Source: a virus (Duplodnaviria; Heunggongvirae; Uroviricota; Caudoviricetes). From it: 20,803 bases of DNA. The notes beneath the pieces are model-generated. The model made no database searches. It had not been told where the DNA came from and saw only the letters and a list, made by a program, of their open reading frames with translations. The translations under genes were made by a program, and so were the position numbers. Shown piece after piece: positions 1-17,058 of this stretch. The stretch is from IMG/VR virus record IMGVR_UViG_2579778622_000006, positions 1 to 20,803 of that record; one strand, 5' to 3'. Every line of letters begins with the position of its first letter. Positions within the stretch are counted from its first letter, which is position 1.

Positions 1-257
1 AAAAATAAAATAAATACAACAACCTTACGGTGTATTTTGATGTCATTAATGTGAAAAAATTCAATGATATCAAATGGTTTTGTAAAAACACATGGTTGTT
101 GTATCGCGTATTTGATGGCGTAACAGAAAGTGATTTTTAACTTTACCGCTCTGTAACTACGGATTATTCCATGCTGGCACGGAGAACGGCTACGGCATGA
201 CGCCACCCAGCCTATACAGAACAGTAAAGCCGATAAATTGTTAATCACGCGCAGCAA

Positions 258-452
258 TGCGTGTGATTTTTGCACACTTCCGGTTAACGGGTACGATGTC
301 CGGTTTGTTTGTACATTTTTTGCACATGTCCGGTTCGCAGAAAGCATGTTTTTATATTTTTCATATAGTTAACTTGCAGAGAAACCGGACATGGATCCCG
401 AAAAATTTTCATAAATAGTGAAAACGCGCGAGGTCGACGCCCCGTAACGGGT
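258..452 (-). other. cos: lambda-type cos site: cosN-like 12-mer (431-442, GGGCGTCGACCT on minus strand) plus cosB-like repeat region (266-392)
   Basis: Minus-strand read CCGTTACGGGGCGTCGACCTCGCGCGTTTTCACTATTTATGAAAATTTTT is near-identical to the lambda left-end cos as I recall it (GGGCGGCGACCTCGCGGGTTTTCGCTATTTATGAAAATTTTCCGG). Followed by an AT-rich stretch and repeated ATGTCCGGTT motifs (296-305, 326-335, inverted at 383-392). Confidence 0.7.
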
Positions 453-473
453 CCACATGCCGGAAAGGACCCG

Positions 474-497
474 CAAAAAAAGCCGGATTTCTCCGGC
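474..497 (-). terminator. rho-independent terminator ending the capsid operon
   Basis: Hairpin GCCGGA-tttc-TCCGGC (482-497) with an A-run at 474-481 on plus, giving a U-tract after the stem on minus. Lies 7 nt past the stop of the 504-917 gene. Confidence 0.6.
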
Positions 498-503
498 CTT
501 GTC

Positions 504-917
504 TCAGATGGTTTTCAGTATGCGATCGATGTTGCCGTCATCGACCGGGTTTCTGCCATCGTATGCCATGCCAGCTGATACGGCTTTCGGGCTGTGCATG
601 TCCATAAAGTTTTCAAAGGCTGAAGTAAGCTGTGGTGCAACCTTCGGGCGTTCCTGCTCTATGGTCATGCTAAGGATGCTTTTAGCCGTACCAACATCGA
701 TACAAGGCACGTTAGCCATTGCACGTAACAGCGGCTGGTAGTCGTCAGATTCATGAAGCGCCATAATCGCATCAGCGCGCTGCTTGTCCTGTTCTTCCAG
801 TTTGTTTAGTCGGTGTATGGCCTCGTAGGTTGATAAACCTCTGTCAGCCATTGCCCGCGCTTCGGCTTTAAATTTACTCGCCAGCGGTAGCGTCATGATA
901 CTTTCATTCGTTGCCAT
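504..917 (-). CDS. hypothetical protein, last gene of capsid operon (occupies the position of a lambda FI-like packaging protein)
   Basis: 137-aa ORF co-oriented with the capsid genes and followed by a terminator; protein-like acidic composition. No family recognised. Confidence 0.5.
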   Translation of the reverse strand: MATNESIMTLPLASKFKAEARAMADRGLSTYEAIHRLNKLEEQDKQRADAIMALHESDDYQPLLRAMANVPCIDVGTAKSILSMTIEQERPKVAPQLTSAFENFMDMHSPKAVSAGMAYDGRNPVDDGNIDRILKTI

Positions 918-929
918 CGTTCCCCCTGC

Positions 930-1265
930 TTATCGGGCCAGCGGCTGAACGGATACGCCGGAACCCGCAAAGGCGGCGCATTTTTTCGCATCGGTGTCGA
1001 CGCTGTCAGGCCAGTTAACGGCGGCAATATTGAATATCCCCGTTTTGTAACACTGTGCTGATTTCTGCTTTGACGTGTCCACGGGGTGCGAAGTCAGATA
1101 AACAGCTTTGCCAGATTCCTGACCATCCCACGCCTTAAACTCGCCATTGTCTGCCAGCATCAGCGGGGTAAATTCCTGAATAACGCCAGCATCAGCGGCA
1201 AAATGTACCAGCGTCGTGGATACCTGCTGGCTGCCTGCAAATAACTCAATATATGGAGCGTCCAT
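930..1265 (-). CDS. head decoration protein, lambda gpD family
   Basis: 111 aa. Shares TPLMLxD, AWDG, YKTG and AFAG motifs with recalled lambda gpD. GGGGGA RBS. Confidence 0.85.
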   Translation of the reverse strand: MDAPYIELFAGSQQVSTTLVHFAADAGVIQEFTPLMLADNGEFKAWDGQESGKAVYLTSHPVDTSKQKSAQCYKTGIFNIAAVNWPDSVDTDAKKCAAFAGSGVSVQPLAR

Positions 1266-1276
1266 AGAATCCCCCG

Positions 1277-2332
1277 TTAAGCAATTTTGACGGTAACAAA
1301 TTTGCGAATATCTGCCGGTACCGGCTGCGGTGCGCTGTGCGTCTGCACGTACTCAATCGCCGGATCGCCGTCCTCAATCCAGTTTTTCGGGTAGTACATG
1401 TTTTGCGTTGCGCCCGTTCTTACCGCTTCCTGATCCATAATCGCACCATAGGCCACCAGCCCTTTATTATTGGTGTTACCCAGGACCAGCAAATCAGGCT
1501 CAAGGAAATATTTTTCGGTGCCGTCGCTGTCAGTGTATTTGCCGGAATAGACGATAAGGGCCAGATCACCAAGATAGCCTTTAAAGCTCACCACTTCGCC
1601 CAGGTTTTTACAGGCCAGCTCGGCGGCGGATTCTGATCCACGGGAAAGATCGTACAGTTCACGGAATTTTTTAAAGCTGCGTAATGTGCGCCATACCTCA
1701 CCGCCCATAATCATGACGTTGGCGGGGCAACCTGCCTGATCAGCATAAAGCTCGATGTCATAGATTGGGTCGTGCATGTCTTTATCCTGCTGGGACCATT
1801 TTTTACCACTGGCCTGCTGTATGATGCAGTTTTCCGGTATTTTCCAGTCGATTTCATAGCGTTCTATGCCTTCGCCCTCAATGATGTTTTTTCCGGTCGT
1901 TACCGCATTCACCGCCAGCCATTCCACGCGCGCCTTAATGGCGTTTATCTGGCGGCGCATGTTGCCAGTAATCAGGCGCATACGGCGGTAAGTTGGATCG
2001 TTAAGCTGTGCCGGATCTTCTCCAGCCATGCGCATGATGGTCTTTGTTGGATCGATTTCGTGCTTTGGCTTCATGTAGCCAGGTTTAATCGTGCTGGTTT
2101 CGTACCCTTTATCGCGCTGGACCTGACTACCCACCATAGGCGAACAGAAAGCCGACATCGTAACCTCTTCAATGTCCAGGGTGTCCAGCATGATGTTTTG
2201 GGTGTTGAAGGTCGCCACGTTCGGGAAAAACAGCGTGGTAAACAGCGGACTAAATTTAAATTCCGAAATATCCCCGCGATTCAGGTACGCGAAAAGCTGG
2301 TTAGTTGTAAGTGCCGTTGCTTTGCCTGTCAT
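1277..2332 (-). CDS. major capsid protein, lambda gpE family
   Basis: 351 aa. Matches recalled lambda gpE in several blocks: EFKFSPLF, PGYMKPKHE, EDPAQLNDPTYRRMR, YPKNWIEDGDPA. GGAGG RBS. Confidence 0.9.
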   Translation of the reverse strand: MTGKATALTTNQLFAYLNRGDISEFKFSPLFTTLFFPNVATFNTQNIMLDTLDIEEVTMSAFCSPMVGSQVQRDKGYETSTIKPGYMKPKHEIDPTKTIMRMAGEDPAQLNDPTYRRMRLITGNMRRQINAIKARVEWLAVNAVTTGKNIIEGEGIERYEIDWKIPENCIIQQASGKKWSQQDKDMHDPIYDIELYADQAGCPANVMIMGGEVWRTLRSFKKFRELYDLSRGSESAAELACKNLGEVVSFKGYLGDLALIVYSGKYTDSDGTEKYFLEPDLLVLGNTNNKGLVAYGAIMDQEAVRTGATQNMYYPKNWIEDGDPAIEYVQTHSAPQPVPADIRKFVTVKIA

Positions 2333-2538
2333 TATTCACCTCCGTGAACCTGATTCATACCCAGCGCCGCACGTAAATAGGTACGCACCTGCCAGCCTGT
2401 TGACGGCTCAACCATCGCCAGCGGATCAAGTCCTGCCGCAATGCCTGCTTTTACATTCTGCTGGTGGCGTTCCTTGAGCGCCTCCACGATGTCGGGGCTT
2501 ATGTAGACCGTCACCCCGCCTTTTTTCTCTTCTGCCAT
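2332..2538 (-). CDS. hypothetical small protein, first gene of capsid operon
   Basis: 68-aa ORF with AGAGGA RBS; its stop overlaps the MCP start (TAATG), suggesting translational coupling. Confidence 0.5.
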   Translation of the reverse strand: MAEEKKGGVTVYISPDIVEALKERHQQNVKAGIAAGLDPLAMVEPSTGWQVRTYLRAALGMNQVHGGE

Positions 2539-2573
2539 AGTCAGAAATTCCTCTTTGACTTAAAAAATCATAA

Positions 2574-2623
2574 CTGGATGTTCATCCAGTCCTGATTATA
2601 ATCATGATTGCATTTTGCGCAAC
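2574..2623 (-). promoter_or_regulatory. candidate sigma70 promoter of capsid operon with a 16-bp palindromic operator
   Basis: On minus strand: -35 TTGCGC (2617-2622), 16-nt spacer, -10 TATAAT (2595-2600), then perfect palindrome CTGGATG-TT-CATCCAG (2574-2589) at the predicted start region. Confidence 0.35.
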
Positions 2624-2703
2624 AATATTGAGTTACGTTGCAAATTATGAAATGATTATCCCGATCATGTGTGCCAGTGCACCATAAAAAACCTCGTATA
2701 CAA

Positions 2704-2743
2704 AAGCCCGATAAGCCCCCTGTGACCTTATCGGGCTTTTTTT
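2704..2743 (+). terminator. strong intrinsic terminator hairpin on plus strand with no upstream plus-strand CDS
   Basis: 10-bp stem CCCGATAAG(G)/CTTATCGGG with an 11-nt loop, followed by TTTTTTT (2737-2743). Confidence 0.5.
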
Positions 2744-2748
2744 AGGCG

Positions 2749-2771
2749 TAAAAAAGCCGGATTGCTCCGGC
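2749..2771 (-). terminator. rho-independent terminator after the ProQ/FinO gene
   Basis: Hairpin GCCGGA-ttgc-TCCGGC (2756-2771) with an A-run at 2749-2755 on plus (U-tract on minus). Confidence 0.55.
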
Positions 2772-2796
2772 TTCGTCTCTTCATGTGGTCAGGGTT

Positions 2797-3381
2797 TTAT
2801 GCTTTCCGTACGCCCGAGGAACTGGCATTTTTCAGAATAATATTATGCCCTGCTGGTGGCTTACCGTTATGCTTATTTTCTGCCTTCATGTTTCTGCGCT
2901 CCTGCTGTTTTTTCTTCATCTCATCCAGTCGCTTCCCCGCGTTCAACTGGTGCTCCTGTGTCACCTCCCCGCACGGATGGCCTTTCAGGTCGTAACGCAC
3001 GCCACCAGCCATCAGGGAACGGTAATATCGCACTGAACTGACATAATACGCCAGCGTTGCGCGAAGCGCTCCCTGACCTAATGAAATACCTCTCGCAGTA
3101 ATATCCTCCATCAGGTCATCAAATATGCCAACCTTAAGCGGTCTGGGCGATTCCTGGCTGAAAAGTTCAGGCCAGAGCGCGGCAAGGCGTTCAACGCGTC
3201 TGATATTTTTTTTCCGGCTCTTTTCTGATTTGCGTTTTGCTGCCGTCTTCTGTTGTGTTTTCTGCTCGCGGCTCTGCTTTTGCGCTGGTGTGGTTTTATC
3301 CGGCTGTTCAGCCTCCTGCGTCTTTTTCTGCGGTGTGCCGTATATGCCTTTTGGTTTTCGGTTAATGGTCAGCTTTGTCAT
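2797..3381 (-). CDS. ProQ/FinO-domain RNA-binding protein with lysine-rich N-terminal tail
   Basis: 194 aa from the ATG at 3381 (GGGGGAG RBS). C-terminal PLKVGIFDDL...LRATLAYYVSSVRYYRSL...RYDLKGHPCGEV matches the recalled E. coli ProQ N-terminal FinO domain (PLKIGIFQDL...RVDLDGNPCGEL). Confidence 0.75.
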   Translation of the reverse strand: MTKLTINRKPKGIYGTPQKKTQEAEQPDKTTPAQKQSREQKTQQKTAAKRKSEKSRKKNIRRVERLAALWPELFSQESPRPLKVGIFDDLMEDITARGISLGQGALRATLAYYVSSVRYYRSLMAGGVRYDLKGHPCGEVTQEHQLNAGKRLDEMKKKQQERRNMKAENKHNGKPPAGHNIILKNASSSGVRKA

Positions 3382-3460
3382 GTTCTCCCCCTTTGTGCTG
3401 TTCCACCAGCGGCATCTGCTACCCCGTGTCGCTCCCGCTGGTGTCGTGTTTCCCCGCCTG

Positions 3461-3781
3461 TTAATAACCGTCATCATTTACGTTATCAGGGTAATCACGC
3501 CATATTTCATCAGTAAGCGACGGTAGCCCCATCTGTTGTATTGTCCTGTCTGCGGCCCTTCTGACTGCGTGAACATCATAACGGTTTTCAGGTATCGGGC
3601 GCTTTGCCTTCCTGATACATTCCCTTGCTCTCATTGCCGCAAGTTCTCTGTGCCTGTCTTCCTGAAGAGTAATCATCACATCCTGCCACCTTCTGGCAGC
3701 CCGTCGCCACAGTCCCCTGCTCTCGAGTTCTTCTGCTGTCGCGTCGCTTATTGTCCGGTTCTTCGGTGTGCTGTTGTTCAT
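3461..3781 (-). CDS. PerC-family-like transcriptional regulator
   Basis: 106-aa ORF containing AEELESRGLWRRAARRW, the motif I associate with PerC/Pch-type regulators. Assigned from memory of the motif only. Confidence 0.5.
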   Translation of the reverse strand: MNNSTPKNRTISDATAEELESRGLWRRAARRWQDVMITLQEDRHRELAAMRARECIRKAKRPIPENRYDVHAVRRAADRTIQQMGLPSLTDEIWRDYPDNVNDDGY

Positions 3782-3798
3782 GTTGCTCCCCGCCTGAT

Positions 3799-4209
3799 TC
3801 AGAAGGGTATATCATCTCCGTAGGGGTCATCGCCTCCCGCTGGTGGCTCATTCCCCTGTGTGCCTGTGGTTTTGCGTCTGTTCCCGCCATGACGTGCCGC
3901 ACGCGCACTGATTACGCTGTCTGCGATAACCTGCCAGCCCTGCCGCGTTTCCCCGTTCTGTCCGGTCCACTGGCTCACCTGCATGTTACCCGCCACGCTC
4001 AGGAGTTCACCTTTGCGGTGCTTTGCCAGTGCTTCGGCCTGTCTGCCAAACGCCAGCACAGATAACCACATCGTCGCCGTTCCGTCATCTGCCTGGCTGC
4101 ACGGAAGGGGGACCGCCATACTCGCCATCGCCATTTGTGTCCCCTTGCTGGTGGTCTTTAACTGCGGGTCAGCCACCAGCCGCCCGTAAGCCGCTATCTG
4201 TGCTGTCAT
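3799..4209 (-). CDS. ssb: single-stranded DNA-binding protein (short SSB)
   Basis: 136 aa with OB-fold-like core (WLSVLAFGRQAE...KGELLSVAGNMQVSQWTGQNGETR), a Gly-rich linker and the canonical acidic C-terminal tip DDIPF. Confidence 0.85.
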   Translation of the reverse strand: MTAQIAAYGRLVADPQLKTTSKGTQMAMASMAVPLPCSQADDGTATMWLSVLAFGRQAEALAKHRKGELLSVAGNMQVSQWTGQNGETRQGWQVIADSVISARAARHGGNRRKTTGTQGNEPPAGGDDPYGDDIPF

Positions 4210-4457
4210 GCTGTATGCTCTCCGGTTTTAACGTTGATGGTTGTCACCTGTTCCGCTCCGGCAATCTCCCGTTCTGTCAGCGTGGCAAAATTTGCCGCTA
4301 CCGTTGTCATGAATGCGCTTATCAGTTCGGGATGTGCTTTCGCGTATCCTTCTCCCGCGTGGCGGTCTATCGTTCTGATTGCCACCTTTAAGGCGTGCTC
4401 TGTCATGTCTAACGCTTTATATTTTGGCGCTGTCTTATCTCTGGTTTTTCTGTTCAT
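4206..4457 (-). CDS. hypothetical protein
   Basis: ORF 4206-4487; the upstream extension translates the iteron repeats (GEWWG), so the ATG at 4457 is preferred. Overlaps the ssb start. Confidence 0.4.
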   Translation of the reverse strand: MNRKTRDKTAPKYKALDMTEHALKVAIRTIDRHAGEGYAKAHPELISAFMTTVAANFATLTEREIAGAEQVTTINVKTGEHTA

Positions 4458-4458
4458 T

Positions 4459-4670
4459 CCCCACCACTCCCCACTTTTGCTCCCCACTTTTTAAATTCCC
4501 CACTTGCTCCCCACCTCGTTTTTTGAGTGAATCTAATGCTTTGTTTTTCATTGCGTTTTTTACTCCCCACTTTTTTGGATATATACAGGTGGGAAAGTGG
4601 GGAATTATGTTTCAATTTTGTTAAATTCCCCACTCTCCCCACTTTTACTACCCACTTTTTACAGTGGGTA
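4459..4670. repeat. iteron array, putative satellite replication origin
   Basis: At least 9 copies of TCCCCAC(TTTT) in direct orientation (4459, 4468, 4481, 4496, 4508, 4563, 4626, 4635, 4649) plus inverted copies (GTGGGAAAGTGGGGAA at 4588-4604; CAGTGGGTA at 4662-4670), flanking an AT-rich core (4570-4585). Sits immediately 3' of the helicase gene. Confidence 0.6.
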
Positions 4671-6074
4671 AACATCATCCCCATCGACACAAATCACGCC
4701 GTCTTTTTCCAGCTTGGACAGCCAGCGCCGGAAGTGCTTCATCTCATACCCCAGCTTTTTCATATCGTCGCGGAGAAGGGCGATAGTGCATGGCTCTTTG
4801 TGTGCCGTCCGCGTTCTGATGCACTGCCATAGCGCGGTATGGTTTTCCGTCTTGTTGCCTGCCTCCTCGATGCGCTCCAGTTCAACGGGAGAGCGCGGCT
4901 TATCAACCACCACCAGCGACGTGATTAACTCCCCGTCAGCGTCGGTAAAAAGCTCCACCACGCGTAAATCGTAGGCGGCCTCTTTCAGTTCCTCCGCGTC
5001 CTTCATTTTGGTGCAGGATATAACCAGGGCTTTACTGTCTGCACCTTCTCGGCGAATACGGTATTCAGCGTCCAGAGATGCACGAAATGCACTGGAACCA
5101 CGCGCCCCCTTTGTTTCATCCTTGCCGGAATGGTGGACCACCAGCACCGTGGCCCCTGTGCGTCGTTTCAGGTCGTCACATCCACGGATAAACGCCCCCA
5201 TATCCCGCGCGTCATTTTCATCATTACCGCCAAAGCAACGCGCCAGCGTATCCAGAATAATCATGCGTACCGGTTTACCCGTTTCCCGTTCAACCTGGCG
5301 GGAAGCGATAACCATTTCATCAACATCAAGCGGGGCTGCCGGAAAAATCGGGCGGTTTACCAGGTACAGATTTTTCACCCGTTCATCATTAACGATTTCC
5401 CATGCCTTGATACGACGGGGGACACCAATGCCACCTTCACCGACAACATACATCACCGAACCATGCGCCACCCTGCGGCCTCCCCAGTGGCGCCCCGTGG
5501 CAACATGACACGCCCAGGAACACGCAAGGAATGATTTATAGGAACCGCTCGCACCGTATGTGCTGCACAATGAATTAGCCGGAATCACGCCCTTAACGAC
5601 ATAATCAAGCTGTGTGTCGTATCCTGCAGATCCAATGCTCATGGGTAGCGTGGTTTTTCGCTGGCTGTATTGCTCATCAGTAAGTATTTCCCCGCGCTCT
5701 GCCTGTTCGCGGATCCGTTGCAGGTAGTCGCGCCATTCCTCCCGCTTCTGGCTGTGCATTCCCTCGGGGTAATAACTCGCATCCCGTACACCTGCCGCCG
5801 CCAGTTTTTGCCCGATGGCATTAATATTTGATGGCTTGATGTGGCCTGCCTTGTACAGCCGGACACAATAGCGACCATCGTCGATAATTTTCAGGTCTGC
5901 CAGTTCGTCAAGCTGACTGTCTCCCAGCCATACTGGCGGGACGTTATCGCCAGCAAGTCGCCCGTCCTGTTCCTGCCATTGTTTTGCGTGCGCCCAGGCA
6001 TCACTACCTGCAAAAATAATGACTTCGGTCATTTTGTTGTGTGGCTGTTTTTTTAAGTTCGGTGCCAGTTTCAT
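4659..6074 (-). CDS. replication protein: RecA-fold (AAA_25/DnaB-like) helicase with C-terminal winged-helix
   Basis: 471 aa. Walker A GASGSYKS; Walker B-like ILDTLARCF; VLVVHHSGKD motif typical of RepA/DnaB-like ATPases; C-terminal basic wHTH-like segment. Confidence 0.8.
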   Translation of the reverse strand: MKLAPNLKKQPHNKMTEVIIFAGSDAWAHAKQWQEQDGRLAGDNVPPVWLGDSQLDELADLKIIDDGRYCVRLYKAGHIKPSNINAIGQKLAAAGVRDASYYPEGMHSQKREEWRDYLQRIREQAERGEILTDEQYSQRKTTLPMSIGSAGYDTQLDYVVKGVIPANSLCSTYGASGSYKSFLACSWACHVATGRHWGGRRVAHGSVMYVVGEGGIGVPRRIKAWEIVNDERVKNLYLVNRPIFPAAPLDVDEMVIASRQVERETGKPVRMIILDTLARCFGGNDENDARDMGAFIRGCDDLKRRTGATVLVVHHSGKDETKGARGSSAFRASLDAEYRIRREGADSKALVISCTKMKDAEELKEAAYDLRVVELFTDADGELITSLVVVDKPRSPVELERIEEAGNKTENHTALWQCIRTRTAHKEPCTIALLRDDMKKLGYEMKHFRRWLSKLEKDGVICVDGDDVYPL

Positions 6075-6370
6075 TTTTTATCCCTGAATCCGTTAATCAT
6101 GGTTTTCATCTTCTGAATATTGGCGCGTGCTTTCTCCCTGCTGGTTGGTTTACTGCGGGGCGCTGCCTGTACCAGAGAAAAATCACGCCGGAACTGATAA
6201 ACAGGCATCACGCAGTCATATTCGTAGCCATCACGGCGGTAAGTGATGCGCCGTTCTGCCACGCCTTTAATCGTTACCGTACCGCCGTAGTTATCACGGA
6301 AAATATCGCCGGGACGGATTTCAGGCCGAGCGGGGCCGCTGGCAGTAAAGCCAGAATTTTTCTTTTTCAT
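6071..6370 (-). CDS. hypothetical protein
   Basis: 99-aa ORF with AGGAAA RBS; its stop overlaps the helicase start (ATGA). Confidence 0.5.
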   Translation of the reverse strand: MKKKNSGFTASGPARPEIRPGDIFRDNYGGTVTIKGVAERRITYRRDGYEYDCVMPVYQFRRDFSLVQAAPRSKPTSREKARANIQKMKTMINGFRDKK

Positions 6371-6374
6371 GGTT

Positions 6375-6575
6375 TTATTTTCCTGTCAGTGATTCCGGCT
6401 TTATTCCGGCGCGAATACAGGCTTCAGAAAAAAAAGCCAGAGAACCAATAACCTCATTATTTCTAAGGCGGCATTGCGATTTCACTTTCCCTTTATCCAG
6501 GAATATCAAAACGCGCCCCGTATAATCAGATGGCACATTAAGCACTACAGGTAAGTGCGCTTCATGATTATTCAT
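6375..6575 (-). CDS. hypothetical protein
   Basis: 66 aa from the ATG at 6575, preceded by a perfect AGGAGG (6585-6590). The longer ORF start at 6644 lacks an RBS. Confidence 0.5.
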   Translation of the reverse strand: MNNHEAHLPVVLNVPSDYTGRVLIFLDKGKVKSQCRLRNNEVIGSLAFFSEACIRAGIKPESLTGK

Positions 6576-6855
6576 GGCTAACCACCTCCTGGAATTTTCT
6601 TCTGTAACGCGCCTCTGCCACATATTCAGCATAGTCCGACGCAATATTGAGAATATCGCTACCCGTTCCTGAATGTTCGGCGGTTTCCAGTAAAAAACAT
6701 GCAGCTTTTACCATGTCAGCAACACATAACAGCGCAATATCTGTATCTTCCGGTGTGCCATCAAATTCCTGTTTCAGGGCATTAAAACGATCATCACGCA
6801 TAACCCCATATTCACAATCAGCAATCAGGATGGCTTTGGCCTCATTCAGTGCCAT
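6568..6855 (-). CDS. hypothetical acidic protein, first clear gene of the leftward replication operon
   Basis: Protein-like C-terminal 95 aa of the 6568-7809 ORF; the stop overlaps the next start by 8 nt. Start is uncertain because the ATG at 6855 has no clear RBS. Confidence 0.45.
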   Translation of the reverse strand: MALNEAKAILIADCEYGVMRDDRFNALKQEFDGTPEDTDIALLCVADMVKAACFLLETAEHSGTGSDILNIASDYAEYVAEARYRRKFQEVVSHE

Positions 6856-7009
6856 ATCAGCGGTAAGCTGTGCGTAGGCCAGCAAATGCGGGATTATTGC
6901 CCCTGTATATTCCGGCTCTCTGATAATGTGGTCGGATGTGTTGATTAAATAGTTTGTGCGAAAAATGCACCTGTAACCATCAGTTAACAACGGATATACA
7001 GGGGGGACC

Positions 7010-7180
7010 ATGAATGATAAGGGGGTGCCGTTTGATGTGCTCCTGCAAAAGCTGAATGCTGCACGCGCCGCAAGGGAACGTGAGCGCATGAGTAATAACC
7101 CTGTCCCTCCTGAATTACCTCGCCCTGAACATTTTCCGCTTGAGGATTTCATCAGGGGACGAATCCGAACAAAACGATAA
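7010..7180 (+). CDS. hypothetical small protein (56 aa)
   Basis: ATG preceded by a G-run; shares the motif FPLE(D/R)FI with the 7424-7618 ORF. Ambiguous: the opposite strand is one long open frame. Confidence 0.25.
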   Translation: MNDKGVPFDVLLQKLNAARAARERERMSNNPVPPELPRPEHFPLEDFIRGRIRTKR

Positions 7181-7231
7181 CCGCCGCCGTGATATGAGGC
7201 ATCACGACGCAATGCATTACAGGTGAGCACC

Positions 7232-7348
7232 ATGAACAAATCCATATTATCCCCCACAGTTCTGGACGTAAACACAAAGCAGCGACAGATATTATTACGC
7301 GCCGTCATTAAAGCCAGACACGAGAAATTAAACCAAATCTTAAAATAA
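7232..7348 (+). CDS. hypothetical small protein (38 aa)
   Basis: AGGTGA RBS 5 nt upstream of the ATG; amphipathic, protein-like sequence. Confidence 0.3.
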   Translation: MNKSILSPTVLDVNTKQRQILLRAVIKARHEKLNQILK

Positions 7349-7423
7349 GATACGCCGCTACCGCTGTAAGTCTTCATCAGAAACAGAAAACGCCAGAGCA
7401 GATGAGCACGGAGGTAACTCTTT

Positions 7424-7618
7424 ATGAAAATAAACGAATCAGGGGAAATTACCGAAGCCAGCGTGGTACGCCAGCGGAGGCGGGAACGACGGGTACGGCC
7501 CCCCGCGCCATCCGATAATTTCCCGCTTGAGCGCTTCATCAGTGAACGGCCCCGCATACGCTGGAACGGCACAACCCCATACCCCGAGGAGAGACAGACA
7601 AAAAACAAACAGCGATGA
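7424..7618 (+). CDS. hypothetical small basic protein (64 aa)
   Basis: GGAGGT RBS 8 nt upstream of the ATG; Arg-rich; FPLERFI motif paralogous to the 7010 ORF. Confidence 0.3.
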   Translation: MKINESGEITEASVVRQRRRERRVRPPAPSDNFPLERFISERPRIRWNGTTPYPEERQTKNKQR

Positions 7619-7897
7619 TGAAATCTGGAGGCCAATACCATCACGCAGCCATCAGGAGATTGCTGACGCGCTTCCTGTTCGCTGGTGGCCTCGATGGTAA
7701 TCACGCGCGGTTGTGCAGTGCTCAGGGCGATAAAACGCCACACAAAGGCCGTTTGTGTGTGCGCCAGGCGTGGGGTATGCTGTCTTACAGCCATAAAACT
7801 ACCTCTCATAACGGTTTGTGGTTAGAAGCCCCGTTACTGCTCCAACAGTGCGGGGCTTCGTCGTTTCAATTGCTGAATTGCATGTATCAGCCCTTGT

Positions 7898-7951
7898 GGT
7901 ATTCAGATTACGTTTTGGTGAATAACATTTCAAGTCTTTTTTGGTATTCAC
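7898..7951 (+). promoter_or_regulatory. candidate operator repeats upstream of the RHH gene
   Basis: TGGTATTCA at 7898-7906 and 7942-7950, with an inverted partner GGTGAATAA at 7916-7924 (TATTCA-N12-TGAATA dyad), in the AT-rich region upstream of the 7995 start. Confidence 0.35.
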
Positions 7952-7994
7952 TTTTGTATTACACTGCATCACGTTATTAATCGGAGGTGCAAAC

Positions 7995-8300
7995 ATGTCC
8001 ACGAGTTCTGTTAACAATAAGTCACAGCAACTGAATGCCAGATTTCCACATGAAGTAGTGAGTGGCATTGAGGCATCCCTACAGCCGGGGGAAACTAAAG
8101 CGAATTTTATAGTTACGGCTGTACGCGGAGAGATCGCCCGCCGCCAGGCAGAAGGAAGAGGAGAAAATCCCCTAGTTTCTTCGCTCGATGCACTGGCGCA
8201 GGTGGAAAAAATCGGTGTCAAAGCTGCCGAGGAGATCGGGCAACTCGTCGCCGTTGCGCGTGAAGAACTCCAGCGGCGCAAAGCCAAAGAGCAGGAATAG
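7995..8300 (+). CDS. ribbon-helix-helix-like DNA-binding protein with coiled-coil C-terminus
   Basis: 101 aa from the ATG at 7995 (GGAGGTG RBS). N-terminal beta-strand/helix pattern (LNARFPHEVVSGIEAS...KANFIVTAVRGEIARR) typical of RHH/Arc-type regulators; followed by a terminator. Confidence 0.6.
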   Translation: MSTSSVNNKSQQLNARFPHEVVSGIEASLQPGETKANFIVTAVRGEIARRQAEGRGENPLVSSLDALAQVEKIGVKAAEEIGQLVAVAREELQRRKAKEQE

Positions 8301-8331
8301 CCCACCAGCAAGCCACCACACTGATCACATT

Positions 8332-8360
8332 GGCCACCGTGACAGGTGGCCTTTGTTTTG
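8332..8360 (+). terminator. rho-independent terminator after the RHH gene
   Basis: GGCCACC-gtgaca-GGTGGCC followed by TTTGTTTTG. Confidence 0.6.
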
Positions 8361-8454
8361 CCTGTTATCCGGCAATTGTGGAGCTTCGTCACACGGTTGA
8401 TATAATTCCCCTGCTCAGATTCATTTTTTGCGCGGCAGGTAAATTGTTCAGAAA

Positions 8455-8482
8455 GGCGGCTCCTTATCGGGGCCGCTTTTTT
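8455..8482. terminator. second hairpin with T-tract between the convergent RHH and alpA genes
   Basis: GCGGC-tccttatcgg-GCCGC followed by TTTTTT (8477-8482) on plus; possibly bidirectional. Confidence 0.4.
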
Positions 8483-8508
8483 CGTGTTTGTCATATCTGT
8501 GATACCCG

Positions 8509-8715
8509 TTAAGCAGCCGTTCCGCGTGCTTCCTGTTCGCGTTCTTTCTGCCAGGCCAACACATCATCCTCATACCATCCGCGACGGCGTAAACCAACGC
8601 GAAAACCCTGCGGAAATTCTCCGGCGTTGATCATGCTTTGCAGCGTGCTGTCTGCCTTGATGTGGATAATTTTTTTTACTTCCTGGCGAAAGATAATTTT
8701 TCTGATTGCTTCCAT
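8509..8715 (-). CDS. alpA: AlpA-family phage transcriptional regulator / excisionase-like HTH protein
   Basis: 68 aa; pattern IIFRQEVKK...GEFPQGFRVGLRRRGWYEDDVLAW matches the AlpA/Vis HTH_17 architecture. Confidence 0.8.
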   Translation of the reverse strand: MEAIRKIIFRQEVKKIIHIKADSTLQSMINAGEFPQGFRVGLRRRGWYEDDVLAWQKEREQEARGTAA

Positions 8716-8848
8716 CGTGATTTACCTTGTGAATCCGGTGTATTCCGGTGACAAATACGGTAAATCATCGGATATGGGTAAAAACAGTTCCCACCGTTTT
8801 TAAACGGTATACACCGTTTTTTATATTGATGATTTGAAATGGAATTAT

Positions 8849-8872
8849 AAAAAAAGCGGCATTTCTGCCGCT
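8849..8872 (-). terminator. rho-independent terminator after the orf83/int transcript
   Basis: AGCGGCA-gaaa-TGCCGCT on minus followed by TTTTTTT (plus 8849-8855 is an A-run); 10 nt past the stop at 8883. Confidence 0.55.
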
Positions 8873-8882
8873 TCCAGGATTG

Positions 8883-9134
8883 TTACCGCCATTTTTTGGG
8901 CCTGCCTCCGATCTTCATAGATGCCGGACGTACGACCTTATCAATACTTACCGCCAGATTTCTGGAAGCGCCACGGGATACCAGAAAATCTACTACCTGT
9001 TTTTTTGATGGGGCCGTCGTCCTGTCCTCCGGATCGTAGGTTGACCAAAATTCATGCTGAACCATCAGGGCCAGTTGCAGCCCGTCGCAATTGCATCTGA
9101 TATTTTTTTGCATCTTAACGGTTTCATGTTTCAC
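8883..9134 (-). CDS. hypothetical protein between int and alpA
   Basis: 83-aa ORF (GTG at 9134 or ATG at 9113) with a terminator directly downstream. Start uncertain. Confidence 0.45.
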   Translation of the reverse strand: MKHETVKMQKNIRCNCDGLQLALMVQHEFWSTYDPEDRTTAPSKKQVVDFLVSRGASRNLAVSIDKVVRPASMKIGGRPKKWR

Positions 9135-9211
9135 GGCCTTGTCGTTAAATTTGATGCAATTATACGACGGTTTTACATGGTTTTCGTAGTTTTTACTGGT
9201 TTTCTGTACAG

Positions 9212-10453
9212 CTACACGGCTCGGATACCCCTTTTACCACTGGCGAGGGTTACGCCCGTCGCCGCAGCCTCGACAAATTCGCCCCACCAGCGCATCAGCA
9301 CGATGCGTTTTTCTATGTAGTTGCTCCGGTTGTATGCCCGTCTAACTTCGTTGGTGTCGACGTGGGCAAGTGCCGCCTCTATTACGTCCGGCTCGAATCC
9401 TTCCTCGTTCGCTGCTGTGCTGAATATGGCGCGTAATCCATGAGACACCAGCACGCCAGCGAATCCCATACGCCGCAATGCTGCGTTAGCTGTCTGGCTG
9501 TTCATCGGCTGCTGTGGGTCTTTCAGACTTGGGAAAACGTAATTGCGGTGGTGGCTGATTGGTTTCATGGCCTCCAGCACCGCCATAGCCTGACCGGAAA
9601 GCGGGATAACGTGATCCCTGCGCATCTTCATGCGTCCGGCAGGTATCGTCCATTGCTTCGCGTCCAGGTTGATTTCATCCCACCGCGTTGATGACGCTTC
9701 GGCGGGACGGGTTACGGTCAGTAACTGCCATTCAATCAGTAATCTGGTCTGCCGTTCTGTTGCCGATACTGATAAAGCCTGCATAAGCTCGGGCAGCTGT
9801 TCGGGGCGGATTGTTGGCATATGTTTTTTTACAGGTGAGGGAAACGCCTTACGCACATTCATAGCCGGATTGGCATCAATCAGCCCACTGTTGGCGGCGT
9901 AATCCATTACCTCATTAACGCGCTGTAAAACCCGCTTGAGTGTTTCCAGGTTGCCGCGCTCCTTGATGGGGGTAAGCACTTCAACGAACCTTCGGGCGGT
10001 GAGGGTATCTATTGGCGTGTTGCCGATGAACGGGAATACATATTTATCCAGCGAACGCCAGATGTCTTTAATCGTGTTGGGGGCCAGATTCTGGCTGATT
10101 TTCACCTGGTACCATGCCGCCGCCACATTTTCGAACGTGTTCCCTTGTCTTCGGGCCTCTGTCTCTCTTTTTTGCCTCTCGTGGTCCTGCGGGTCAGTTC
10201 CGGCACTGATTAACGTCCTGTACTCGCTACGGCGTTTTCTGGCATCAGCCAGGGAAACATCTTCAAGCGATCCAAAACTCAGCAATATTCTTTTTTTGTC
10301 CGATGGTCGGTAGTAGGAAAATCTCCAGAGTTTTGATCCAGACGGTTTGACCAGGAGAAAAAGCCCTCCGCCGTCCTGCAGGGTGTACTCCTTTTGCGCT
10401 GGTCTGGCTGCTTTGATCTGCACTGTGGTTAATGGGTGTGTTTTTCTCGCCAT
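9212..10453 (-). CDS. int: tyrosine recombinase, P4-type integrase
   Basis: N-terminal arm-binding-like domain (LTTVQIKAARPAQKEYTLQDGGGLFLLVKPSGSKLWRFSYY), catalytic C-terminus with R...HGLR and terminal RAYNRSNY (Tyr). Adjacent to the tRNA 3' remnant. ATG at 10453 preferred over the GTG at 10471. Confidence 0.9.
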   Translation of the reverse strand: MARKTHPLTTVQIKAARPAQKEYTLQDGGGLFLLVKPSGSKLWRFSYYRPSDKKRILLSFGSLEDVSLADARKRRSEYRTLISAGTDPQDHERQKRETEARRQGNTFENVAAAWYQVKISQNLAPNTIKDIWRSLDKYVFPFIGNTPIDTLTARRFVEVLTPIKERGNLETLKRVLQRVNEVMDYAANSGLIDANPAMNVRKAFPSPVKKHMPTIRPEQLPELMQALSVSATERQTRLLIEWQLLTVTRPAEASSTRWDEINLDAKQWTIPAGRMKMRRDHVIPLSGQAMAVLEAMKPISHHRNYVFPSLKDPQQPMNSQTANAALRRMGFAGVLVSHGLRAIFSTAANEEGFEPDVIEAALAHVDTNEVRRAYNRSNYIEKRIVLMRWWGEFVEAAATGVTLASGKRGIRAV

Positions 10454-10485
10454 ATGTCTATGATTCCACACGAAAAAACAGGGTT

Positions 10486-10539
10486 TTAGTTATACGGCTT
10501 TAGTTATACGTCAGCCCGTATAACTAAACGTATAACTAA
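10486..10539. repeat. integrase arm-type site candidates: four 11-mers TTAGTTATACG (two direct, two inverted)
   Basis: Direct copies at 10486-10496 and 10500-10510; inverted copies CGTATAACTAA at 10517-10527 and 10529-10539; between the int start and the att core. Confidence 0.5.
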
Positions 10540-10590
10540 AAAATCCGGCTGATAGCTTATAAATCCGGTGATGTTCGGTGACTAAAAAAC

Positions 10591-10625
10591 ATAAAAAAAC
10601 CCGCCAATCAAGTGATTAGCGGGTT
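10591..10625 (-). terminator. hairpin with U-tract downstream of the tRNA 3' remnant (weak terminator)
   Basis: AACCCGC/GCGGGTT stem with a 14-nt loop; the A-run at 10593-10599 on plus gives a U-tract on minus. Confidence 0.35.
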
Positions 10626-10636
10626 ATCCCTGTCTT

Positions 10637-10664
10637 ATCCGGTGCTTTCCGGTGATATCCGGTG
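10637..10664. repeat. three tandem (A/T)TCCGGTG heptamer-core repeats at 10-bp period next to the att core
   Basis: ATCCGGTG (10637-10644), TTCCGGTG (10647-10654), ATCCGGTG (10657-10664). Related copies at 10564-10580 and at 8731-8750 in the alpA promoter region. Confidence 0.45.
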
Positions 10665-10671
10665 GGCGATT

Positions 10672-10720
10672 TGGTCGGCACGAGAGGATTTGAACCTCCG
10701 ACCCCCGACACCCCATGACG
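10672..10720 (-). other. tRNA-Pro (GGG-type) 3'-end fragment, 49 nt, not an intact gene; integration (att) junction
   Basis: Minus-strand read CGTCATGGGGTGTCGGGGGTCGGAGGTTCAAATCCTCTCGTGCCGACCA equals the anticodon-loop-to-CCA portion of E. coli tRNA-Pro as recalled; the sequence 5' of it cannot form the acceptor or D arm. Confidence 0.65.
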
Positions 10721-10912
10721 CCGCTTGTAAAACGCTGAGAGCCGCGCTATTGCTGGTTAGAAGTACCATTTGCATGTATAAACAAACAGTGCTTTTTCGA
10801 CATAATCTGCTCTATATACTTCAATGGCTTACATGGTGGTTTCTCCCCATGTTTGAATAGTTTCGAAGAGTTGTGTGACATAATGCCAGAATAAACTACT
10901 AGAGGCTGGATA

Positions 10913-11764
10913 ATGAAAAAAAGAACTAAAAAAGGCAGTAACATTCGTTTCCGAGAACACACTGAGGTTGAGAGGTCTTACATTAGCCTTTATAAGATCT
11001 TCTGCCGCGCTTGTGAAATTTCCGCGGCCATATCACTGAATCAAAGCGGAATTAAGACTGACGGCAGGGGAATACGGGCTGCAAATATTTTCACTCGTCA
11101 AGTGTTGACTGCGCATAGTCTTAAGAAACTACTACCAGTACTGCGAAACGGAGTTAATCCCGATGATACAGTATGGGATGTAACCACTATCGCACTTGTG
11201 TCCAGAAGTGTGATGGAAAATTTTCAGGCGCTTTTTTATTACGGAACGGAAACGGTCTCGGAAGCGGAGGCTGACTTTCGTTTTCGAATTTTCCAGAAAG
11301 ACAGAAATGTTAAATGGCGTGATATCAGACTGAAGGCTGGTGAATCTGAAGAATCACTGGAGGAGTTTTTCACCGGCATACCAAAGCAGCAGGAGGAGAT
11401 AGTGAACCATGAATTCTATAGTTCACTATCTAAAGAACAAAAGAATAGTCTCAAAAACAGGGCCGAAATGTATTATACCAAAGCTGAGTTCGAAGCTCGC
11501 TGCCCGCGGTTAGCCGACATTGCACTACATCACCAGTTACTATCAAATCTGGCTCATCCATTGCCACTGGCTATCCACAGGATTGATGAATTTAGCGGTC
11601 ATGGTGCACCCAGTGAAGCTGACATCTGCTTAGTCATAATATCCCTGAAGGTTGCTACAGACTGCCTAATTGCGTCAGTTGAGGGGATGGGCGAAAAATT
11701 TGCCGATAGTATCGGTATACATTATCGGTCAATGATTGAAGAACTCTCCAATTACTCACTTTGA
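10913..11764 (+). CDS. hypothetical protein, AT-rich cargo gene (candidate accessory or defence function)
   Basis: 283-aa ORF, the only plus-strand gene between the att remnant and the lambdoid int; visibly lower GC than its flanks; convergent terminator hairpin downstream; R-x6-H motif (RLADIALH) in the C-terminal third. Confidence 0.6.
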   Translation: MKKRTKKGSNIRFREHTEVERSYISLYKIFCRACEISAAISLNQSGIKTDGRGIRAANIFTRQVLTAHSLKKLLPVLRNGVNPDDTVWDVTTIALVSRSVMENFQALFYYGTETVSEAEADFRFRIFQKDRNVKWRDIRLKAGESEESLEEFFTGIPKQQEEIVNHEFYSSLSKEQKNSLKNRAEMYYTKAEFEARCPRLADIALHHQLLSNLAHPLPLAIHRIDEFSGHGAPSEADICLVIISLKVATDCLIASVEGMGEKFADSIGIHYRSMIEELSNYSL

Positions 11765-11792
11765 AATTAATACATTCCTCAACTTCCAACAC

Positions 11793-11821
11793 AGAGCAAC
11801 CCGTCCAATTTGGTTTGCTCT
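11793..11821. terminator. hairpin between the convergent 283-aa gene and int
   Basis: AGAGCAA...TTGCTCT stem (with extension) followed by GCTTTATAC. Confidence 0.4.
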
Positions 11822-11857
11822 GCTTTATACTAAAGCAATAAAGGGAGTAATTTATTA

Positions 11858-13036
11858 TTAGCTGGCTTTAATTTCTCCATGGGGAACGACAACCCAATCT
11901 ATATGATTTTGCGTGTAGATCTTGGTTGACTTCGCATCGCTGTGCGCCATTCGTCCTTGTGGATCGATACCCTGCTGATCGAATAGATGCGCTGCTAGTG
12001 CTCGAATTTCGTGAAAGGTTGGTCTTTCATCCATTGGTAGATTGTCGCATAAACCTAGTTTGTCCCGTGTAGCTGAAAACGACCTACTCAAATAGTCCGG
12101 TGCAACTTGAGTAGGATGTGAAACCTCTTTGCTGCGTTTAACTTGGCGTTCTGGGATCCTGTGAACGACAAACGGACTGGCCACATTATCTCGGCTATCG
12201 TCAATTATCCGTTTCAACTCTTCACCAATTGGTATTGCAACGTGTGACGCCTCTTTTTGTTGCACTTTTTGCCTGTGGATGTAAAGCGTCCCATATATGC
12301 CATTTTGTGGTTGTTCGAACCAGACACATCCACATATACCGTCTTTAGGTTCGCGAATTGAGTAACGGATTCGCGATACTTCGAGTCGTGCATGTGTAGT
12401 CTGCAATGCTAGGTCCATTGCTGTTCTTAACCATGGTGCAGCGGCCTGCCTGATAGCTATAAAATGCTCGAGTGACAGGCGCCGTCTTTTCTTCTCATCA
12501 GTCCTACGCATTTTTTTTCTGATGGCCGGGTTATCCAGCATTAGTGATTCATCGACCGCATAAGAGAACAACTTTTTAAGAAAGCTGACCTTTCTGTTCT
12601 GCACATTTGCGGATGCGCTGGCATGATATTTGTTGATGTAGGTATTAACGTGTTCAAGTTCGATATCGCATGCCGGAACATTTACGAAAAACGCTTTTAC
12701 GCGTAGAGCGTCATTTTTCCAGTCATCTAAGGTGCTCTGGGAAGGACGTTCGTCTTCGATAATTCGGGCCATTATGTGATCAACATGTTCAGCAAATGGT
12801 TTTGCTTCTCCGATAACACCGCCAGATTCTCTAATAAGATTATCTACTGATGGAGATAATTCTGGTCGCATCCTCAGGTTGTACTCTCTGGCGATTGCAA
12901 TGGCTATTGCCCTATCCTTACCTATATTTTTCTTCTTTCCGGTAATAAGTGTGAATTTATAAACACCTCGATCTTTATCAAAAATCAGATAATCAGGAAG
13001 ATGTCTGTATTCTTTTTTACGTGGCCTTGCCGCCAT
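11858..13036 (-). CDS. int: tyrosine integrase, lambda Int family
   Basis: Aligns to recalled lambda Int in several blocks (LSLEHFIAIRQAA..WLRTAMDLA vs LTADEYLKIYQAA..WLRLAMELA; RPTFHEIRALAAHLF vs PPTFHELRSLSARLY). ATG at 13036 with GAGGGGTGA RBS; the ORF-track start at 13042 is a GTG. Confidence 0.9.
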   Translation of the reverse strand: MAARPRKKEYRHLPDYLIFDKDRGVYKFTLITGKKKNIGKDRAIAIAIAREYNLRMRPELSPSVDNLIRESGGVIGEAKPFAEHVDHIMARIIEDERPSQSTLDDWKNDALRVKAFFVNVPACDIELEHVNTYINKYHASASANVQNRKVSFLKKLFSYAVDESLMLDNPAIRKKMRRTDEKKRRRLSLEHFIAIRQAAAPWLRTAMDLALQTTHARLEVSRIRYSIREPKDGICGCVWFEQPQNGIYGTLYIHRQKVQQKEASHVAIPIGEELKRIIDDSRDNVASPFVVHRIPERQVKRSKEVSHPTQVAPDYLSRSFSATRDKLGLCDNLPMDERPTFHEIRALAAHLFDQQGIDPQGRMAHSDAKSTKIYTQNHIDWVVVPHGEIKAS

Positions 13037-13038
13037 GG

Positions 13039-13248
13039 TCACCCCTCATTTATTAACTTGCGAACAGCTTGACTAACCATTGAGTCGACTCCCCATTTTT
13101 CTGTTTCGCAGACAAAAACAGAACCGTCCACGATACGCCCCATGAGCAGACCGTTCTCGACCCAGCGTTTTATCGTTCGGTTGTCAGGAATTGAGCCATT
13201 AGAGAATTCACGGCGTCCCCATTGGCTCGCTTTCATTAGTTTTGCCAT
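13039..13248 (-). CDS. xis: excisionase (Xis-like)
   Basis: 69 aa from the ATG at 13248 (GGAGAAA RBS). Pattern ASQWGRREF...RTIKRWVENGLL...DGSVFV resembles lambda Xis (LQEWNARQ...ETVRRWVRE). Lies immediately upstream of int. Confidence 0.7.
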   Translation of the reverse strand: MAKLMKASQWGRREFSNGSIPDNRTIKRWVENGLLMGRIVDGSVFVCETEKWGVDSMVSQAVRKLINEG

Positions 13249-13309
13249 GGCTGTTTCTCCACTTAACCCGCTGCACACGGGCAGTAATATCAAATTTCAG
13301 TCCTGATAA

Positions 13310-13525
13310 TTAATTTTGTTCTATGGTTGCTACCTGTTTAATTGGCCTGATGCTGTCCAGGAGCAGTCGGCGGCGCGTATTTTCTGCAAAGTGGCGGCGT
13401 CCGGTTTCTTTGTGGTAAAACTCGTTTTTTCCGACGACCCACATCCGCTTTGTCTGGTGCAGTTTTTTTACCTGCGGACCGTTTCGGGTAATAACAATTC
13501 CTGTATGAGTTTTTATCACGCTCAT
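13310..13525 (-). CDS. hypothetical protein
   Basis: 71-aa ORF with GGAGAA RBS; start overlaps the upstream stop (ATGA). Confidence 0.5.
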   Translation of the reverse strand: MSVIKTHTGIVITRNGPQVKKLHQTKRMWVVGKNEFYHKETGRRHFAENTRRRLLLDSIRPIKQVATIEQN

Positions 13526-15082: not shown

Positions 15083-15109
15083 GGTACATTATGTATCTCA
15101 AAGGTACAT
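15083..15109. promoter_or_regulatory. candidate left operator (O_L) dyads
   Basis: GGTACAT-t-ATGTATC (15083-15097) overlapping ATGTATC-tcaaa-GGTACAT (15091-15109); same half-site family as the dyads flanking the cI start. Confidence 0.45.
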
Positions 15110-15153
15110 TGTCAAGTATAAAAAAACCTGCCGAAGCAGGTTCATAACATTGA

Positions 15154-15828: not shown

Positions 15829-15844
15829 AACGAAATTAAAACCT

Positions 15845-15915: not shown

Positions 15916-15918
15916 TGT

Positions 15919-16119: not shown

Positions 16120-16150
16120 CAGAAGACCTTCAATTTTTAACCACAGAACG

Positions 16151-17049: not shown

Positions 17050-17058
17050 AGGTCGGTC

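Follow-up and report, generated by a model that had tools for sequence, protein, structure and literature searches.

A phage satellite and a lambdoid prophage probably in tandem at the Escherichia coli tRNA gene proL

Tandem arrays of mobile elements are standard at tRNA genes, as are two crossover subsites within such genes, one in the anticodon (A) and one at the T-stem/acceptor junction (J) (PMC7192596; PMC4383910, Table 1). In Islander/TIGER arrays (PMC4383910; PMC7192596), each element has its own integrase and a tRNA fragment oriented like the gene, an internal att site is common to both neighbors, and the tRNA gene survives intact at one end of the array. The locus described here resembles these arrays and differs from them in nothing essential; it would combine an A-type with a J-type element, with fragments of 49 nt and 13-15 nt, respectively. 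A second comparison is with the E. coli PICIs and cf-PICIs (PMC10085698; PMC10111431). Like them, our satellite is about 11 kb long, lies in a tRNA gene, carries an acceptor-stem deletion in its displaced tRNA-Pro fragment, and has the order int, alpA-like gene, replication genes, late genes. PICIs leave "damage" in tRNA-Pro fragments (PMC10111431), which the repeat at the far end of our satellite fits. Unlike in cf-PICIs, no portal, protease, terminase, or connector genes were found in the window copy of the satellite.

The stretch of DNA analyzed (the window) is 20,803 nt long and comes from IMG/VR virus record IMGVR_UViG_2579778622_000006. We are highly confident that it spans the internal junction between a satellite and a lambdoid prophage, which would sit in tandem in the E. 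coli proL gene for tRNA-Pro(GGG). At the center of this reading is a 49-mer at 10672-10720 on the minus strand, which matches exactly the final 49 nt of K-12 proL and which we assign as a displaced 3' remnant of that gene, the internal att site of the array. The identity stops right after 10720, where CATGACG is followed by CCGCTT in the window and by GTGCGC in proL. The 49-mer is single-copy in the window and had no match in 100 shuffles. ARAGORN found no intact tRNA in the window, and Rfam gave nothing at gathering score over its whole length; low-score Rfam matches around the junction were dismissed as chance matches. The initial annotation had described a perfect 49-nt tRNA-Pro 3' end on the minus strand, with no intact tRNA in the window, and K-12 proL identity and ARAGORN bear this out; all of its coordinates and distances were reproduced.

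The satellite occupies 1..10671 on the minus strand, as delimited by 100% identity of window 1-10720 to E. coli B771. Its total size is about 11.4 kb, with the far end some 0.7 kb past the left window edge. Pfam and PHROGs place in it genes for an integrase, an AlpA-like HTH protein, an Icd-like protein, a DUF4222 protein, a RepA/AAA_25 helicase, SSB, PerC, ProQ/FinO, a lambda E-like capsid protein, a D-like decoration protein, and a 137-aa protein. The last resembles the C-terminal part of head-maturation proteases and is read as scaffold-like. Within 504-2538, the only head genes in these scans were those for capsid, decoration, and the scaffold-like protein. The identical B771 copy has one further gene before the far att site, encoding a 93-aa hypothetical protein. 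A complete cf-PICI head and packaging module (capsid, protease, portal, connectors, small terminase) was therefore not found in the satellite, whereas one close relative (L022) carries this module in full. The element is like satellite phage P4 in its type of integrase, in targeting a tRNA 3' end, and in having an Icd-like gene. It differs in having lambda-type capsid genes in place of the P4 hallmarks; psu, delta, sid, and the P4 alpha-type primase were absent from the satellite ORFs scanned against Pfam and PHROGs and from the genes that RefSeq annotates in the identical B771 copy.

The satellite integrase gene lies at 9212..10453 on the minus strand. The ORF extends to 10471, and RefSeq places the start at the ATG at 10453 (WP_000101718.1, 413 aa), 219 bp from the remnant at 10672. 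The protein scores above the Pfam cut-offs for Arm-DNA-bind_3 (DUF4102), Phage_int_M, and Phage_integrase, so that the P4/CP4-57 domain set is complete. It also matches NF007246 with 552 bits (cut-off 434), and its PDB matches are CP4-like integrase domains. Between this gene and the remnant lies the int-proximal att arm (10454..10671, minus strand), which also follows intact proL in satellite-only strains. It contains four CGTATAACTAAA repeats in two inverted pairs (10485-10540), TCCGGTG repeats with 10-bp spacing at 10638, 10648, and 10658, with another at 10564, and a terminator hairpin at 10598-10625 that takes the place of the native proL terminator. The sequence CGTATAAC(C/T)AAA is present in the far arm too (L004, 7371-7394), for which we record TAGTTTAATTGAG... 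The far-end repeat itself, TGGTC--CACGAGAG, adjoins yejO (L004, 7297-7309). The 49-nt core had been expected at this end; instead, the repeat in identical or related copies retains only 13 of the last 15 nt of the tRNA, 2 nt of the acceptor stem being deleted.

The second integrase gene (11858..13036, minus strand, 392 aa) belongs to the prophage and ends 1138 bp from the remnant edge at 10720. Its product scores 26.7 bits against PF09003, the lambda arm-binding domain (cut-off 22). Its sole PDB matches are lambda Int structures, with residues 4-359 aligned to 3-325 of 356 (E 5e-11). The catalytic domain falls under the Pfam cut-off for PF00589 (18.9 vs 27.1); the arm-binding N-terminal domain and full-length similarity that mark the lambda Int family are both present. 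The two integrases had been said to converge on the remnant, which describes their positions and not their transcription, as both genes are on the minus strand, with the remnant upstream of the left gene and downstream of the right one. A probable excisionase gene (13039..13248, minus strand, 69 aa) is assigned from its position directly upstream of int; it is kept beside int in all related prophages and has a weak HTH match only. From 13249 to 20803 the early region of the prophage continues past the right window edge. It includes genes for a YfdR-like protein, an S24 repressor, a CII-like protein, a replication protein, and PerC. Other ORFs correspond to genes for Dam methylase, RusA, and KilA-N in related prophages. 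The Pfam scan covered window proteins up to 18000, and names beyond that point are taken from related prophages.

For the prophage, the closest described att regions are those of the isolated phages Eeyore (PP925821) and Flotzy (PP925827). Their contiguous attP consists of a terminator-like arm (P'), 45-48 nt of tRNA-Pro, and a 130-nt arm, followed by an Int 77% identical to that of the window; in Eeyore the int gene thus adjoins a tRNA-Pro attP. The 130-nt arm is homologous to 10721..10850, the attP arm (P arm) of our phage, which is 100% identical to that of the prophage-only strain EC20-4B-2 and 75-78% identical to the segment from tRNA-Pro piece to int in Eeyore, Flotzy, and Phi06_2987. 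Eeyore and Flotzy differ in that no cargo separates the arm from int; elsewhere, too, their genomes are unlike the window prophage. The module also resembles that of lambda in its Int with an arm-binding domain, attP downstream of int, and xis upstream. Compared with lambda, the window prophage has a tRNA gene, not the gal-bio attB, as its target, leaves the 15-bp lambda core unused, and has cargo splitting int from attP.

Strains with one element show each half of the window on its own. In B771 the satellite lies alone between yejO and an intact proL. Identity to window 1-10720 is 100%, and past this stretch come the intact proL gene and yejM; nine other contexts have this layout. EC20-4B-2, which has the prophage alone, is 100% identical to window 10670-13300. 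Immediately to the left of this stretch it has the native proL terminator and yejO, a layout found in nine further contigs. Here, as in many draft genomes, the order is yejO, 49-nt remnant, 283-aa gene, int. A second copy of the 49-nt core, predicted in the initial annotation for the far prophage end within an intact tRNA gene, was indeed found in the two prophage-only loci that reach that end (L007 and L012), where it lies within intact proL beside yejM. The complete natural array in FORC_042 has yejO, satellite, remnant, prophage, proL, and yejM, with all three att sites.

Because single-element strains, phage attP sites, and the FORC_042 array fix the structure, the remnant can be assigned as a shared internal att site. 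The proposal of tandem integration at tRNA-Pro, with the remnant as shared junction, is thereby upheld. Each element has its own full-length integrase gene, from different families (9212-10453 and 11858-13036), as in Islander arrays. As for the tRNA fragments, the internal 49-nt one is in the window, whereas that of the satellite lies outside it and is visible in just two places, the 100%-identical B771 copy and FORC_042. An intact tRNA at the array end is seen in the analogous FORC_042 array and in the prophage-only loci L007 and L012. The satellite and prophage halves of the window have no DNA homology, and the array is therefore not a product of homologous recombination between the two elements. 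As a tandem array of mobile elements this is nothing unusual, the kind being already well documented at tRNA genes.

Our comparisons suggest the order yejO, short damaged tRNA repeat, satellite, 49-nt tRNA remnant, lambdoid prophage, intact proL, yejM, with the far satellite end and the intact proL of the source strain presumably lying where identical or related copies have them. The attP of each element would carry its own tRNA 3' end, such that integration rebuilds a whole tRNA and displaces the fragment. The P4-type Int of the satellite would need only about 15 nt, the T-stem/acceptor 3' end of proL, as indicated by an identity block to the proL 3' end at 10672-10686 (minus strand). The lambda-type Int would use a block of 45-49 nt starting at the anticodon stem-loop; in the phage/tRNA comparison its identity block is the whole 49 nt (10672-10720, minus strand) and begins inside the anticodon stem. 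Putative crossover positions of both elements are placed from the starts of these blocks. The segment 10672-10720 would then serve as int-proximal att site for satellite and prophage alike. Both integrases are presumably active, and separate excision of each element should be expected.

Between the P arm and int lies a cassette (10851..11836, plus strand). Eeyore and Flotzy lack it and have int directly beside the arm; in FORC_042 other genes take its place, and homology restarts exactly at 11837. The cassette holds the 283-aa gene (10913-11764, plus strand), a hairpin (11793-11821), and a 15-nt palindrome, GCTTTATACTAAAGC (11822-11836), which is the lambda-core-like sequence. The 283-aa protein had no match in Pfam, PHROGs, PADLOC, NCBIfam, or PDB sequences, and its all-alpha AlphaFold model (pLDDT 80) had no significant PDB fold match. 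A distant relation to DUF5677 is reached only through homologues at 39% identity. From these comparisons, the gene is phage cargo inserted between attP arm and int, and the 15-mer is a palindrome at the cargo edge, not an att site. Relatives have a candidate defense gene (PDC-S31, DUF2971) in the same slot, and an analogous slot at ssrA holds DarTG.

We give almost no credence to the alternative raised in the initial annotation, that the 15-mer is the true lambdoid attL and that the 283-aa gene and tRNA remnant form a separate small islet. The 15-mer does lie 22 bp past the int stop codon, about where lambda has its attP, and marks the right edge of the variable cassette; the chance expectation of GCTTTATACTAA in the window is only about 0.09. 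However, a lambda-type core would be repeated at both prophage-chromosome junctions, and the 15-mer is internal to the element and single-copy in all 10 loci having it (L001, L005-L014), including the two that reach the far prophage end, in which the 49-mer is duplicated. The 283-aa gene travels with int in every prophage-only strain, with yejO directly beyond the remnant. Free phages with the 77%-identical Int have a tRNA-Pro attP instead of the 15-mer, and FORC_042 has the same int without it. Moreover, two convergent genes flank the 15-mer, a perfect palindrome that stacks on a hairpin, and lambda-core-like strings (≤3 mismatches) occur four times in the window. An assembly or chimeric join over the shared tRNA, from satellite-bearing and prophage-bearing templates, is also very improbable. 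The two halves of the window are each 100% identical to different complete genomes and overlap by only 51 nt (10670-10720). The exact junction occurred in 0 of 5,426 complete E. coli genomes, a junction-spanning pattern had no matches in metagenome contigs or species-representative genome contigs, and no sequence in these collections spans the junction. Exact-protein look-ups with the 283-aa protein, the RepA helicase, and a 145-aa protein turned up neither the source contig nor a further array at proL. Against an artifact, finished genome FORC_042 has the same architecture and order with diverged sequence, and the join looks exactly as expected from site-specific recombination. Since proL is present only once in E. 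coli, any strain with both elements must carry them in tandem. Counting against the array itself, co-occupancy is rare: 425 genomes contain the satellite int and arm (280 of these at ≥90% identity) and 109 contain the lambdoid int, while a junction of the same kind occurred in 1 genome, compared with roughly 6-9 expected under independence.

For a real array, it had been supposed that the satellite arrived first. The arrival order cannot be told from structure, because the sequence at all three att sites would be the same whichever element came first, and flanks, core lengths, and the 2-nt deletion were dropped as order markers for the same reason. It is thus possible, if not the likelier course, that the prophage came first and the satellite then entered the 49-nt remnant on the yejO side, or that the whole array was acquired pre-assembled via homologous recombination of flanks. 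The remnant is a plausible attB for the satellite, as it keeps the full 15-nt satellite core and the native downstream flank; according to published work, a second element can integrate at either of the regenerated sites (PMC7192596), and the end structure would be identical to the satellite-first product. On the other side stands a weak 2:1 argument: prophage-first permits two outcomes, whereas satellite-first permits the observed order only, since the anticodon region needed by the phage is missing from the 13-nt far repeat.

The satellite has lambda-type capsid and decoration genes without portal, terminase, or tail genes, and this gene content is the basis of a further idea. The neighboring lambdoid prophage might be the satellite's helper, with nested, non-competing att cores keeping both linked, the satellite Int excising the satellite or, via the outer cores, the whole array, and the prophage shielding proL from the acceptor-stem deletion. 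We regard this as very improbable; were it true, helper and satellite would be co-inherited.

No open question hangs on the array, and it matters mainly for annotation: the remnant would mark the exact border of two mobile elements that automatic pipelines could merge. The 283-aa gene belongs to the prophage, where it fills a cargo slot of variable content that separates attP from int. The locus also offers a clean case of two integrase families on nested parts of one tRNA gene.

A 49-mer at window positions 10672-10720 (minus strand) is identical to the final 49 nt of E. coli K-12 proL, tRNA-Pro(GGG), with the match to the tRNA ending precisely past 10720. It occurs once in the window and in none of 100 shuffles. 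This is the perfect tRNA-Pro 3' end that the initial annotation had reported, and its claim that the window lacks an intact tRNA also held: ARAGORN found no tRNA and Rfam gave no match at gathering score. Two integrase genes, both on the minus strand, flank this remnant. The left int (9212-10453; start at the RefSeq ATG) begins 219 bp from the remnant, is transcribed away from it, and encodes the P4/CP4-57 domain set (NF007246 score, 552 bits). The right int (11858-13036) ends 1138 bp from the remnant, is transcribed towards it, and encodes a lambda arm-binding domain; its PDB relatives are lambda Int structures only. Both the families and the distances first proposed (219 bp and about 1.1 kb) were thus borne out.

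Strains carrying a single element locate both integrations. The chromosomal order is yejO, proL, yejM (lapC), and the site is empty in K-12. The satellite-only strain B771 matches window 1-10720 at 100% in a single piece, and continues with the 5' part of an intact proL and then yejM. Among further contexts of the satellite helicase gene (10 places listed, from 24 contigs read), the left int adjoins yejM directly in 10 of 10, nine of which carry the same satellite. Prophage-only EC20-4B-2 matches window 10670-13300 at 100%; on the left, its remnant is bordered by the native proL terminator and yejO. Nine other contigs share the prophage-only layout of yejO region, remnant, and 283-aa gene, followed by int in seven and by an internally deleted prophage in two (L007 and L012). 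These two loci reach the far end of the prophage, where an intact proL adjoining yejM contains the 49-mer a second time. The phage arm ahead of this copy mimics the native terminator and GGGATTTT flank.

The phage attachment site was recognized in free phages. Records of Eeyore, Flotzy, and Phi06_2987 share a 48-nt stretch with window 10670-10717 at full identity, and over the next ~130 nt they match window 10721-10850 at 75-78% identity. In Eeyore and Flotzy this tRNA-Pro/arm block lies directly 3' of the integrase gene. On the other flank of the tRNA piece come a terminator-like hairpin and genes for UmuD-like and DinI proteins. Across 390 residues, Eeyore Int and the lambdoid Int of the window share 77% identity. 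The lambdoid Int lineage therefore uses proL. Its P arm is window 10721-10850, and its identity block with the tRNA covers 45-49 nt, from the anticodon stem-loop onward.

For the satellite, far ends in B771 (L004 7297-7309) and FORC_042 (L003 9431-9443) read native terminator, GGGATTTT, TGGTC--CACGAGAG, and satellite DNA. Of the final 15 nt of the tRNA this repeat retains 13, so the satellite identity block is only ~15 nt, corresponding to window 10672-10686. The missing 2 nt, from the acceptor stem, agree with the 'damage' that PICIs are reported to leave in tRNA-Pro and other tRNA fragments (PMC10111431). Were the satellite to excise precisely from a strain that carries it alone, the proL left behind would presumably be defective. 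Between the satellite int and core, four exact CGTATAACTAAA repeats form two inverted pairs (10485-10540). The motif recurs in the satellite far arm (L004 7371-7394), and these repeats are likely arm-type Int sites. TCCGGTG repeats with 10-bp spacing adjoin the core (10638-10664) and occur also at 10564-10570 and upstream of an alpA-like gene (8734-8750). The motif is present 12 times in the window, where 2.3 copies would be expected, and a satellite protein for excision or regulation may bind it. The int-proximal arm also supplies a terminator hairpin of its own, placed behind the tRNA end.

The left element, which has a P4-type int, is a PICI-like satellite and not a P4-like one, since psu, delta, and sid genes are absent from it. 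Its late module (504-2538) is limited to genes for a 68-aa protein, lambda E-like capsid and D-like decoration proteins, and a 137-aa protein, similar to the C-terminal part of head-maturation proteases, which we read as scaffold-like. This partial lambda-type head module contrasts with the complete cf-PICI head and packaging module of L022, a relative with the same early genes. The Icd-like gene (6568-8494) is divided in the window between two overlapping ORFs, at 6568-7809 and 7799-8494; relatives L018-L020 have a single 595-aa ORF, and the annotation of the identical B771 copy calls it a frameshifted pseudogene. The right element is a lambdoid prophage, of which the window holds only the int-xis and early regions. 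No DNA homology was detected between the two halves.

The finished genome FORC_042 carries, in order, yejO, the 13-nt repeat, a related satellite, a 45-nt remnant, cargo, a lambdoid int, a lambda-like prophage of ~48 kb, intact proL, and yejM. That the window junction is instead an assembly join is unlikely, given this natural array of the same kind and that proL is a single gene in E. coli. Together with the single-element strains and the phage attP, FORC_042 upholds the proposed tandem integration with a shared remnant; we infer the outer ends of the window array from such identical or related copies. A lambda-core-like sequence, GCTTTATACTAAAGC (11822-11836), had been offered as an alternative lambdoid attL. 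It forms a perfect palindrome that stacks on the hairpin at 11793-11821, in the gap separating the 283-aa gene from the convergent int. The window has four strings with no more than 3 mismatches to the lambda core. It was rejected as an att site, being present once in each related locus that contains it, inside a phage-borne cassette, and absent from FORC_042.

As each element carries a copy of the tRNA 3' end, each integration rebuilds the gene and displaces a fragment. The blocks are nested: that of the phage begins at the anticodon stem-loop (subsite A), that of the satellite at the T-stem/acceptor junction (subsite J). The two subsites (PMC4383910 Table 1) and tandem arrays (PMC7192596) are standard, and this literature suggests that crossover takes place close to the 5' edge of each block. 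The initial proposal that the satellite came first is not supported: either order yields the same three att sites, so the order of arrival is irrecoverable. A phage arriving second would find no anticodon region in the 13-nt repeat and would be limited to the intact gene, giving the observed order. A satellite arriving second could enter the remnant or the intact gene, and choice of the remnant would give that order too. Each element is predicted to excise alone. Satellite Int should also recognize the core in intact proL, which could allow it to excise the array as a whole. With the prophage present, the functional proL would not be the copy receiving the satellite deletion.

In free phages int abuts the P arm; the window has an insertion between the two, at 10851-11836. 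FORC_042 holds other genes in this slot (L003 18150-21086), including a DUF2971 protein matching the PADLOC candidate defence system PDC-S31, and homology with the window restarts precisely at 11837. The slot between attP arm and int is a variable cargo site. A comparable arrangement lies at ssrA (L029 4446-8509, GCA_961209035.1): a CP4-57-type int, a ~30-nt tmRNA 3' remnant (5842-5871; partial Rfam tmRNA match to the last model position), DarT-NADAR (DarTG) cargo in the slot (6000-7307), and a lambdoid int of another family (Arm-DNA-bind_2), followed by the same early genes as in the window. The 283-aa protein (10913-11764) had no family, defence-model, or PDB match. Its relatives form 25 clusters, those with named sources being Enterobacteriaceae, and the farthest reach DUF5677. 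Its AlphaFold model is all-alpha (pLDDT 80), with no significant PDB fold match. Because the slot holds the PDC-S31 match and DarT-NADAR elsewhere, by analogy this protein may be a candidate defence gene.

Across 5,426 complete E. coli genomes, the exact window junction was found in none and a satellite-prophage junction of the FORC_042 kind only in FORC_042. The satellite int and arm occurred in 425 genomes (280 at >=90% identity) and the lambdoid int in 109. Arrays are uncommon, since one double occupancy of proL was seen against ~6-9 expected under independence, ignoring population structure. This shortfall could reflect that structure or interference between the elements. The analogous ssrA array shows that the int-remnant-cargo-int pattern is generic. 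The window structure is an ordinary tandem array at a tRNA gene, built from two elements that are both common in E. coli.
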